Source: a virus
Taxonomy: Duplodnaviria; Heunggongvirae; Uroviricota; Caudoviricetes
Virus record (IMG/VR): IMGVR_UViG_3300037067_007156
Span: 575,980-639,979 of that record
Strand: one strand, 5' to 3'
DNA length: 64,000 nucleotides
Shown: one piece after another, positions 56,460 through 57,762 of the stretch
Numbering within the stretch: position 1 is the first letter of the stretch
Layout of the letters: each line of letters opens with the position of its first letter
Program-made: the position numbers and the translations under genes
Notes under the pieces: generated by a model
The model's database searches: none
The model's input: only the letters and a program-made list of their open reading frames with translations
Told to the model about the DNA's origin: nothing

Positions 56460-56657
56460 TTAATTATTTTCTTTGAATTCTGGAAACAATTTTTCCAATT
56501 TCATTCTTCTTGTAATTCTTTTAATTGTACATTTCATTGTTGTTAAACGTTGTTTACCATCAATAATAGGTGGTGTAGCACCATAAACACTATTTATTAA
56601 CATTTTTTGCTGCCTTCTGGTAGCTCGACCCAATACTTGTAATTCTAATAAAGTCAT
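56460..56657 (-). CDS. Tagged mini-protein carrying family B polymerase motif B
   Basis: QKMLINSVYGA; ends RRMKLEKLFPE. Confidence 0.6.
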   Translation of the reverse strand: MTLLELQVLGRATRRQQKMLINSVYGATPPIIDGKQRLTTMKCTIKRITRRMKLEKLFPEFKENN

Positions 56658-56696
56658 ATTACAAAATTAATATATTTTTTAATATGAACATGGGAA

Positions 56697-56954
56697 TTAA
56701 TACATTAAATCATCACCAAATATATCTTGTATTTTTTTATTTCTTAACTCTCTTAACTCTCTTAACTTTCTTCTTGCTTCTTCTTGCTTTAACTGCTCAC
56801 CAAAAAGGGTTTCCATTATTTGTTTATTTATTTCTTTTGAAAGTTCTTCACTTAAAATATCAGTCAAATAACTTTCCAAATCACAACCAAAATTAGTATA
56901 ATTCCCGATGTTACTGATTGTATTACTATTCCATATAGACATTCCACTATTCAT
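56697..56954 (-). CDS. Tagged mini-protein carrying a major-capsid helix fragment
   Basis: GCDLESYLTDILSEELSKEINKQI; ends LRNKKIQDIFGD. Confidence 0.65.
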   Translation of the reverse strand: MNSGMSIWNSNTISNIGNYTNFGCDLESYLTDILSEELSKEINKQIMETLFGEQLKQEEARRKLRELRELRNKKIQDIFGDDLMY

Positions 56955-57141
56955 TATTAAAAATTTCTTCGATTTTTGATTTTCTTATTAATGAGGGTGT
57001 TAATTTTTCAAATGATTTAATTAAACTGTTTAATTGTTCTGCTAAGTAGCTTGAATAACTTATACTTTGTTCAAGTCGTTCTGCTAATTTATCATATTCT
57101 TCTTTGCGAACATATTTACTTCTATCTAATAACATCATCAA
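56947..57141 (-). CDS. Tagged mini-protein carrying scaffold repeat units
   Basis: LAERLEQSISYSSYLAEQLN; ends IRKSKIEEIF. Confidence 0.65.
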   Translation of the reverse strand: MMMLLDRSKYVRKEEYDKLAERLEQSISYSSYLAEQLNSLIKSFEKLTPSLIRKSKIEEIFNNE

Positions 57142-57304
57142 ATATTTTATTTAATTTTTCTTTACGTGTTTTTCTAAGTTCAACACGTTCTTCTTCTGGT
57201 GATTGAATACTTAATGTTTTCATCAACCATTTTATATCAAAAACATTCAATTGTGTCAGTTCTGATAATAACTTAATTTTTTCTTTATTGTAATTCATCA
57301 CCAA
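57122..57304 (-). CDS. Tagged mini-protein, payload unidentified
   Basis: Ends TRKEKLNKIFDD. Confidence 0.55.
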   Translation of the reverse strand: MVMNYNKEKIKLLSELTQLNVFDIKWLMKTLSIQSPEEERVELRKTRKEKLNKIFDDVIR

Positions 57305-57512
57305 ATATTCTATTTAATTTTTCTTTACGTGTTTTTCTTTTCAATCGTCGCTCTTCTTCTTGCAACAAAAGTTTAAGTTCGTTTTCCACCAATGAAACTG
57401 ATATTCCACAATTTTGAAAATCTTCTATTTGTTCGGATGTTACATTAACTGAAATTTTTCTTGTATTAACCGAAACCGTTTTGGTTATCAATTTTAGCTG
57501 TTTCTGTTTCAT
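57285..57512 (-). CDS. Tagged mini-protein carrying a major-capsid strand-helix fragment
   Basis: TKTVSVNTRKIS..TSEQIEDFQ..GI; ends TRKEKLNRIFGDE. Confidence 0.6.
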   Translation of the reverse strand: MKQKQLKLITKTVSVNTRKISVNVTSEQIEDFQNCGISVSLVENELKLLLQEEERRLKRKTRKEKLNRIFGDELQ

Positions 57513-57762
57513 TATTTAATGTTGATATTAATTCTGGAAATAATTCTTCTATTTTACTTTTTCTTTCAGCCCTTTTCATTTCACGTTCTAAATCCCACAA
57601 ACCTTCCATAGAAATAGTCGAAGCAGATGCATATAAGATTTGAGAAGACATGCTTGTGCAACCAGATAACATATTAGGATTCATAACATTTGGTTGTATA
57701 CTAACCACTAACGGTGTTGCTAACTGTTTAGATTGTTTTATTGTTTTATTTTTCCAAAACAT
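57466..57762 (-). CDS. Tagged mini-protein, possible capsid N-terminal fragment
   Basis: LA..LVVSIQP..SQILY; ERKSKIEELFPE. Confidence 0.5.
   Translation of the reverse strand: MFWKNKTIKQSKQLATPLVVSIQPNVMNPNMLSGCTSMSSQILYASASTISMEGLWDLEREMKRAERKSKIEELFPELISTLNNETETAKIDNQNGFG

Follow-up and report, generated by a model that had tools for sequence, protein, structure and literature searches.

The internal proteins of T-even phages are described as diverse and as sharing just a short capsid-targeting sequence (CTS) (PMC3012670, PMC9958956). In bacteria, zincin peptidases linked to vWA-MoxR reportedly act on precursors that are small and diverge fast but keep a conserved peptide at the C terminus, and in such systems the vWA protein has been proposed to capture the client peptide (PMC7159879); for the MoxR and peptidase-vWA pair of jumbo phages, a role in virion assembly that includes peptidolytic processing has been suggested (PMC7824862). 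Short pieces of proteins, as outlined in PMC11831152, can bind native partners and inhibit. Here we describe a cluster of six small open reading frames (mini-ORFs), each carrying a common peptide tag near its C terminus, in a 64-kb stretch of phage DNA (64,000 nucleotides, hereafter called the window). The window is the final part of the 639,979-bp virus record IMGVR_UViG_3300037067_007156 (positions 575,980 to 639,979), which has direct terminal repeats and ~25% G+C, and a tag of the same kind is found on about one gene in eleven of the whole record.

Mini-ORFs are named below by their lower coordinate in the window, and positions in the rest of the record are marked as genome positions. The nearest named relatives of this phage are the "uncultured phage" records LR756500 to LR756504 (460 to 735 kb), in which the N-terminal half of family-B DNA polymerase (PolB-N) is 34 to 58% identical to that of the window. 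Closer relatives in IMG/VR, by the identity of PolB-N, are the loci L007 (95%), L008 (92%; on a 675,678-bp contig) and L009 (70%; on a 135-kb contig). The gene set of the whole genome was a greedy pick of open reading frames (ORFs) of at least 40 aa, which gave 990 genes with 92% coverage.

Results

One C-terminal peptide on unrelated proteins

The first-pass annotation, a reading of the letters of this DNA, had described six overlapping ORFs of 60 to 98 aa with a common C-terminal motif. All six exist, and all carry [RK]xxK[LI]xx[IL]F, 3 to 23 residues ahead of the stop; the five from 57762 to 56697 overlap, and the sixth (56460-56657) is set apart from them by a 39-bp gap (56658-56696). In the 990-gene set, the strict motif lies at most 25 residues from the C terminus in 54 genes and elsewhere in 10. 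With a relaxed motif (last residue F, L, I, or M, at most 12 residues from the C terminus), 91 of the 990 genes (about 9%) are tagged, against an expectation of 2.8 from the internal rate of that motif; reversed sequences yield 6.

The invariant Arg of 53 tags is encoded by AGA (31), CGA (9), CGT (5), CGG (4), CGC (1), and AGG (1), which is near genome-wide usage, so that it is the amino acid sequence of the tag, rather than its DNA, that is constrained. Tagged genes tend to be short (median, 109 aa versus 143 aa) and are scattered genome-wide, often in runs of 2 to 5; where a same-strand downstream gene exists, 50% of the tagged genes overlap with it, compared with 19% of the untagged genes. 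A function of the tag as a nucleotide signal (the translation-initiation region or promoter of the next gene) was considered and is ruled out by the Arg codons and by an overlap of only 50%.

The residues past the aromatic residue of the tag are rich in D and E, and an amphipathic pattern reaches ~5 residues upstream. The payloads ahead of the tag are mostly unrelated to each other, with few mutual phmmer matches among those of 53 tagged genes (payloads of at least 25 aa). Among 36 tagged proteins of at least 80 aa, Pfam names only three bodies, namely, a D12 adenine methyltransferase, an ankyrin-repeat protein, and a weak Terminase_6N match (E = 0.009). The protein with this last match has 196 aa (genome 304039-304629, +) and a Walker A of GMST that is degenerate by eye; the real large terminase lies at genome 453324-455573. 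A 114-aa ORF (genome 312257-312601, −) carries an internal tag (RLKLENLFPDFKNNE) as well as a terminal one and looks like a pair of mini-ORFs fused via stop loss; its neighbors at 312594-312878 and 312856-313023 are tagged pieces of the capsid N-arm. The tag also resembles the end of the T4 gp23 propeptide (residues 49 to 65), with 50% identity over 18 aa and an E value of 0.09 in an eight-protein database, which we take as a lead only.

A core of the form h-x-x-h-F near the C terminus would suit a PIP-like tether to a sliding clamp, of the sort by which T4 proteins attach to gp45; the clamp-binding motifs of T4 and RB69 were used for the comparison. The C-terminal half of the phage's own PolB ends in ...GFFSSIFDF, and an RFC-like clamp loader is present (WEKYRP start, genome 466649-467599). 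However, a clamp gene was not found either with the Pfam models for gp45, PCNA, and DnaN (nothing over cut-off) or with PHROGs on 196 proteins of 170 to 290 aa, the polymerase tail is without the RKxK part, and a set of 91 clients is implausible. A clamp tether is thus a very improbable explanation of the tag.

Related megaphages differ in their tags

Upon a search with a DNA pattern for the tag, 43 matches were obtained in the phage's own genome (3 in a shuffle) and 62 in the genome of L008 (2 in the control). Match numbers were 4 on the 135-kb contig of L009 (control, 2), 4 in LR756501 (control, 4), 3 in LR756502 (control, 0), and 1 in LR756500 (control, 3). Two ORFs of LR756501 that end in ...ELDPYGEE[DN]W.. 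prompted a search for this second peptide, and LR756501 (735 kb) was found to have its own tag, ...DPYGEE[DN]W.., with 109 pattern matches versus 0 in the control and 0 in three other genomes. Judged by these patterns, the RKxK[IL]xx[IL]F tag is confined to a narrow lineage, and related megaphages use different proteome-wide tags.

An ORF of 207 aa in LR756501 contains three scaffold repeats and ends in EDPYGEEDWSV, and another of 178 aa contains most of a prohead-protease domain and ends in ELDPYGEENWSE. Pieces of head proteins joined to the genome's own tag recur independently of the sequence of the tag. Example loci with the DPYGEE-type tag are L061 461-1084 (+) and L053 1378-1914 (−).

The mini-ORFs are under selection and change fast

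In L008, nine tagged mini-ORFs, with no endonuclease gene, start 7 nt past the PolB-N stop and reach the convergent capsid and protease-scaffold genes. All six mini-ORFs of the window have orthologues among these nine; those of 57466, 57122, and 56460 lie at 11489-11767, 12291-12461, and 13424-13618, respectively (57466 has a further orthologue at 12465-12701 of L007), and in that of 56460 the INSVYG motif and the tag are kept and the linker is different. Nucleotide differences between the mini-ORFs of the window and those of L008 amount to 28 to 39%. At these levels, the chance that a frame stays open under random substitution is 0.005 to 0.018 for each and 4.5e-13 jointly for the six, and selection therefore keeps the six frames open.

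The bodies of the mini-proteins are 45 to 58% identical between the window and L008, with dN/dS values of 0.31 to 0.80 (0.75 to 0.80 for two of them), and PolB-N, capsid, and scaffold are 92 to 94% identical, with dN/dS values of 0.04 to 0.10. Within the mini-proteins, the nine-residue core of the tag is identical at 44 of 54 positions (81%), compared with 179 of 393 (46%) in the rest. L007 has two tagged members left and an orthologue of 57285 without the tag; four members were lost, and endonuclease genes are found in their place. L009 retains one member, of 94 aa.

Neutrally decaying gene debris had been named by the first-pass annotation as one outcome that would refute its reading, and inert leftovers of local duplication and homing-endonuclease traffic, open by chance, would fit a region crowded with homing endonuclease genes in which the payload sources are neighboring genes, as well as the two highest dN/dS values and the losses in L007. 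Against this stand the joint neutral probability and the conservation of the tag core given above, the presence of the cluster in L008 without an endonuclease, and the conservation of the 56697 family in six sequences, so that we give debris a next to negligible probability. The six ORFs are selected yet dispensable, fast-changing genes.

Near-neutral evolution of the bodies combined with a conserved tag would also fit a demand to keep the proteins harmless, and the tag could then be a degradation or turnover signal, read by a protease or adaptor of the host or the phage, that makes small proteins short-lived or clears them on schedule. The required but flexible location near the free C terminus (0 to 12 residues) agrees with such a signal, as do the small size of the tagged genes and their frequent position in co-directional overlapping arrays typical of early regions, and the basic-then-hydrophobic make-up of the tag resembles that of MuA-type ClpX signals. 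On the other hand, the tag could be connected with neither a protease nor an adaptor, degrons as a rule depend on the exact C terminus, whereas the tags here are trailed by variable tails of up to 23 residues, and the recurrence of head-protein pieces under the different tag of LR756501 is left unexplained. A turnover signal is, in our judgment, distinctly unlikely.

Several payloads are pieces of head proteins

The payload of 56947 had been matched by eye to the scaffold, which was confirmed: residues 17 to 41 (57019-57093) correspond to one to two 14-aa repeat units, with a phmmer E value of 2.6e-14 against the protease-scaffold fusion and 60% identity over 25 aa to the scaffold repeat in blastp. 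Likewise, the assignment of 56697 to the capsid held. Its residues 11 to 62 correspond to capsid residues 314 to 363, a strand end and a long helix (hhalign against the capsid family, E = 9.8e-6, 82% probability), and it matches 30 of the 376 profile positions of Pfam Gp23 (PF07068) with an E value of 1e-4 and 22.3 bits, below the cut-off of 24.4. The helix is the best-conserved body segment in the alignment of the six-member family, which is narrow (4 homologues among 5.8 billion clusters), and AlphaFold2 predicts 56697 to be a single helix at residues 11 to 82 (mean pLDDT, 74.5).

For 57285, the capsid match lies where it had been placed (residues 8 to 34, 57411-57491, against capsid residues 298 to 324) and is marginal (hhalign E = 0.021; Pfam Gp23 E = 0.025, 14.4 bits). 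Given scores below the PF07068 gathering score, 56697 and 57285 are best taken as pieces and not as capsid proteins. A six-frame Gp23 scan of the whole genome matched only the capsid gene, 56697, and the tagged ORF g312594. The capsid family counts 1,983 members at E <= 1e-20.

A zincin-vWA protein is encoded at genome 348985-350691 (−), with matches to DUF2201_N (E = 8.1e-13) and DUF2201 VWA (E = 1.2e-7). Its residues 346 to 411 resemble the helix, linker, and tag of 56697 (E = 1e-6 in a small database; phmmer E = 4.8e-4), and because the capsid-like segment of 56697 also resembles this conserved helix, the origin of 56697 is not beyond doubt. The zincin-vWA segment is an inter-domain helix that includes ...RKSRKDYLKKIKRVITNEIFG and is kept in all four relatives whatever the tag.

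The PolB motif B (K...NS.YG) that had been read in 56460 is present; there was no PF00136 hit, and profile and BLAST searches supported nothing of PolB beyond that motif. Stop-free matches to K...N[SGT].YG number only three in the six-frame genome, including 56460 and the real C-terminal half of PolB. The motif in 56460 is T4-like (INSVYG), unlike that of the phage's own C-terminal half (INGTYG), and 56460 is not a simple leftover of the PolB split, since this split is common to relatives down to 34% identity. The two halves of the split gene lie ~120 kb apart (PolB-N in the window; C-terminal half at genome 514604-516571, +), and the C-terminal half holds a mini-intein in motif C (Pfam Intein_splicing, E = 1.1e-13, residues 246 to 372).

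Upon a tblastn search of 50,697 phage records, three chance-level hits were obtained with 56460 and none with 57285. The proposed match of 57466 to the V(Q/K)P region of the capsid found no support (hhalign E = 0.42, at a different place), and profile and sequence searches with 57122 gave no supported payload match. An architecture of payload plus common tag is thus real for three or four of the six mini-ORFs.

Elsewhere in the genome, the tagged ORFs g312594 and g118331 correspond to the capsid N-arm region (5.7e-9 against the phage's own capsid) and to scaffold repeats (8.5e-42), respectively. A piece from the N terminus of the prohead protease occurs in the relatives at L008 11974-12162 (E = 0.002) and L007 12862-13044 (E = 0.5, both in a small database). 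The claim that the pieces are nearer to the gp23 consensus than to the phage's own capsid holds for 56697 (T4 gp24, 30.0 bits; T4 gp23, 24.3 bits; own capsid, 22.3 bits) and fails for 57285, which hits the phage's own capsid only.

From such likenesses it had been proposed that the mini-proteins are decoys for host sensors or dominant-negative poisons of assembly or replication in co-infecting phages. The phages poisoned would be T4-like, and the tag would serve in delivery or turnover. The payload sources are indeed conserved phage proteins (capsid, scaffold, prohead protease, terminase ATPase, and PolB), and the best-conserved body segment of the 56697 family is the helix that scores higher on T4 gp24 and gp23 than on the phage's own capsid. 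ORF g312594 covers a conserved capsid stretch aligned with T4 gp23 residues 107 to 120, which in coarse position belongs to the first quarter of gp23, reportedly the part that contains the Gol region (PMC3014915). Fast evolution with gain and loss among close relatives fits arms-race genes, and fragment-based inhibition is an established concept in the account of PMC11831152.

The tag, however, is not peculiar to the cluster, and most of the genes that bear it are without a recognizable essential-gene payload; six of nine partial head-protein paralogues are untagged. Moreover, g312594 is nearer to the phage's own capsid (41.2 bits) than to that of T4 (23.9 bits), and the scaffold repeats are the phage's own as well, so such pieces would interfere with the phage's own assembly. 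Binding of a fragment could just as well trigger a sensor. We therefore regard decoys or poisons as unlikely, compatible as the idea is with packaging.

Surroundings of the cluster

The features of the window that bear on the cluster, together with further tagged ORFs, are listed in Table 1. Downstream of the cluster, on the opposite strand, lie three endonuclease-like genes, followed by the capsid gene and the protease-scaffold fusion.

Table 1. Coordinates, in the window, of the mini-ORFs, other tagged ORFs, and genes around the cluster
Feature	Position	Strand	Remark
Mini-ORF, 98 aa	57466..57762	−	tag RKSKIEELF at 57538-57564, 23 aa ahead of stop
Mini-ORF, 75 aa	57285..57512	−	tag RKEKLNRIF at 57303-57329
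Mini-ORF, 60 aa	57122..57304	−	tag RKEKLNKIF at 57140-57166
Mini-ORF, 64 aa	56947..57141	−	tag RKSKIEEIF at 56959-56985
Mini-ORF, 85 aa	56697..56954	−	tag RNKKIQDIF at 56718-56744; capsid spine-helix-like segment at 56802-56891
Mini-ORF, 65 aa	56460..56657	−	tag RRMKLEKLF at 56484-56510; PolB motif B (KMLINSVYG) at 56580-56606
Homing-endonuclease-like gene (DUF7487)	57766..58650	−	between PolB N-half and cluster; absent there in L008
DNA polymerase B, N-terminal half (split gene)	58667..60148	−	upstream of cluster, same strand
Prohead protease (S80)-scaffold fusion, 14-aa tandem repeats	48545..50959	+	source of 56947 payload
Major capsid protein (gp23 family)	51037..52671	+	source family of 56697 and 57285 payloads
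Tagged ORF, 126 aa, ending ...RMKKITTLFDEVR	19736..20116	+	found by motif scan
Tagged ORF, 108 aa, ending ...RREKLLEIFGDWDDETE	35596..35922	−	found by motif scan
Tagged open frame, 76 codons, ending ...RKKKLDQIFGDELR	7766..7996	+	dropped by the crude caller for a longer overlapping ORF

About a dozen tandem 14-aa units are present in the protease (Peptidase_S80)-scaffold gene at 49300-49950 (+), for example, NIEYSEYLAESLDK, and copies of this unit appear in small ORFs of this genome and of LR756501. The load of homing-endonuclease-like genes is extreme, with genes at 196-1332, 47549-48436, 52690-53865, 53945-55537, 57766-58650, and 60239-61378 and further ones at 37473-38567, 41101-42006, 42345-43256, 44527-45264, and 55564-56445. 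Six of the endonuclease-like genes are named homing or HNH by PHROGs and five are copies of phrog_20046; the one copy that was checked matched GIY-YIG weakly. Several of these genes lie in between genes essential for the head and for replication, and L008 lacks them at the corresponding places.

A pair of transposase-like genes at 30716-32187 (−; phrog_6620, of the serine-recombinase type, and phrog_506) may represent an insertion sequence. The tail sheath protein (1365-4943, −) is unusually long, 1,192 aa, and sheath families match only its final ~330 residues. The count of sigma-70 promoter-like sites in the window was not above that in shuffles, one terminator-like site was found, within 56460, and an Rfam scan of the window gave zero matches. 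The sequencing runs that contain the stretch are DNA runs (groundwater share, 0.90; landfill share, 0.32), with no RNA run listed.

Discussion

The reading we prefer, to which as a whole we assign a probability of about 0.4, is that these are selected, modular mini-proteins with a lineage-specific address tag that docks to one putative phage-encoded reader and routes them into head assembly. The descriptive half of this reading is close to certain; head assembly has perhaps one chance in three of being the destination. A position-restricted peptide that occurs on ~9% of unrelated proteins, is conserved while the bodies diverge, and is swapped wholesale in a relative leads us to infer an address label with a co-evolving reader. 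Unrelated small proteins would be docked through their C-terminal tag to this one shared reader, which may act in prohead assembly in the way the CTS loads the internal proteins of T-even phages. Capture or clipping of the tag would fall first of all to the pair formed by the zincin-vWA protein and a MoxR-like AAA+ protein (genome 346559-347860, with AAA and bpMoxR hits), as the leading candidate, and the recycled helices may bind their parent proteins through native-like contacts.

Head assembly is favored because the cluster adjoins head genes, because scaffold, capsid, and protease pieces are recycled under two different tags, because the T-even internal proteins as described are a close precedent (PMC3012670, PMC9958956), and because giant phages are reported to pack dozens of proteins (PMC7411985).

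Several points weigh against this proposal. The position of the L008 cluster, 7 nt past the stop of a replication gene, suggests early or middle co-transcription and not that of a late head gene. The tag is C-terminal, whereas the known capsid-targeting sequences of phages are N-terminal, and a protease-type site, [LIVMF]-x-E, stands directly ahead of it in only 12 of the 91 cases. As a cargo set, 91 tagged proteins would be very large, and the totals of 990 and 91 are themselves approximate, since the gene calls are crude ORF picks. The capsid is ~65 to 70% identical across relatives with quite different tags, which argues against the capsid itself as the reader. A phmmer search of 2,315 ORFs gave nine partial paralogues of capsid, protease-scaffold, and portal, six of them untagged, two tagged at most 12 residues from the end, and one tagged 22 residues from it. 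Residues 346 to 411 of the zincin-vWA protein were tried as a matching pseudo-tag and rejected, the segment being conserved whatever the tag dialect.

Address label and decoy could also be combined, in that a proteome-wide C-terminal code of this clade's megaphages, switched wholesale between relatives (RKxKIxxIF here, DPYGEEDW in LR756501), would stock the head with a changing library of mimic peptides that are injected together with the DNA. The peptides would be pieces of capsid, scaffold, prohead protease, terminase, and polymerase, which would then be the proteins that abortive-infection sensors detect, and such decoys would meet the host sensors before phage gene expression. We hold this combination to be very unlikely.

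On the preferred reading of an address label, the tag pattern suggests a protein-addressing system in huge phages that we did not find in print; C-terminal tags that run through a phage proteome were not described in the literature we searched. In this 640-kb phage, one and the same peptide is bolted onto about one gene in eleven, and a relative has swapped in a quite different one on ~100 genes. New here are the tag on recycled pieces of essential genes, a cluster kept with turnover in close relatives, and the repetition of the pattern under the LR756501 tag. Once found, the reader would reveal a common fate, and probably a common role, of scores of small proteins now called "hypothetical," and phage engineering would gain a transferable tag with which to load or recruit proteins. 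One route by which new small phage proteins originate is seen in the recycled pieces: a copy of an interface helix from an essential gene receives the address tag. The pieces also make natural inhibitory or decoy fragments a directly testable idea.

Comparison with known systems

Small proteins reach the interior of a shell via a short C-terminal peptide in the case of SaPI1 CpmB, as compared with the 80alpha scaffold, and in that of encapsulin cargo peptides. Such mimicry of a scaffold tail in an HK97-fold system has a parallel here in that the phage's own scaffold ends in ...NRYISVFKNLK, which fits the core [RK]-h-x-x-h-F plus four residues. This tail was considered as a tag-like motif and rejected: the core also stands at the C terminus of 18 of 899 untagged proteins, which makes the match weak, and the scaffold tails of the relatives do not follow the change of tag. 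Several mini-protein bodies are pieces of the kind known from inhibitory fragments; PMC11831152, as far as its account goes, concerns engineered fragments and not a natural tagged library.

With the zincin and vWA-MoxR systems (FxSxx-COOH type), the phage has in common the pair itself, and its small, variable proteins with a more conserved C-terminal peptide are precursor-like. Known precursors adjoin the peptidase and number one or few, whereas here ~91 genes are spread over 640 kb, the mini-ORF cluster lies ~285 kb from the pair, and the pair is present in relatives whatever the tag. A same-strand tagged array (genome 341673-343662) lies 3 to 5 kb downstream of the MoxR gene, a proximity that is not significant at one tag per 7 kb.

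The T-even CTS (IPI-III and Alt) differs in being N-terminal, ~10 aa in length, and cleaved off at (L/I)-x-E by the prohead protease, whereas the tag here is C-terminal, has no consistent site ahead of it, and occurs on ~9% of genes; the two systems are compared here by arrangement. In that arrangement, they are alike: the CTS is described as a short conserved peptide on diverse, fast-evolving proteins, non-essential in T-even phages, that addresses them to the scaffolding core, and here one peptide is carried by unrelated proteins (91 of 990), with a cluster that adjoins the head genes and uses pieces of head proteins.

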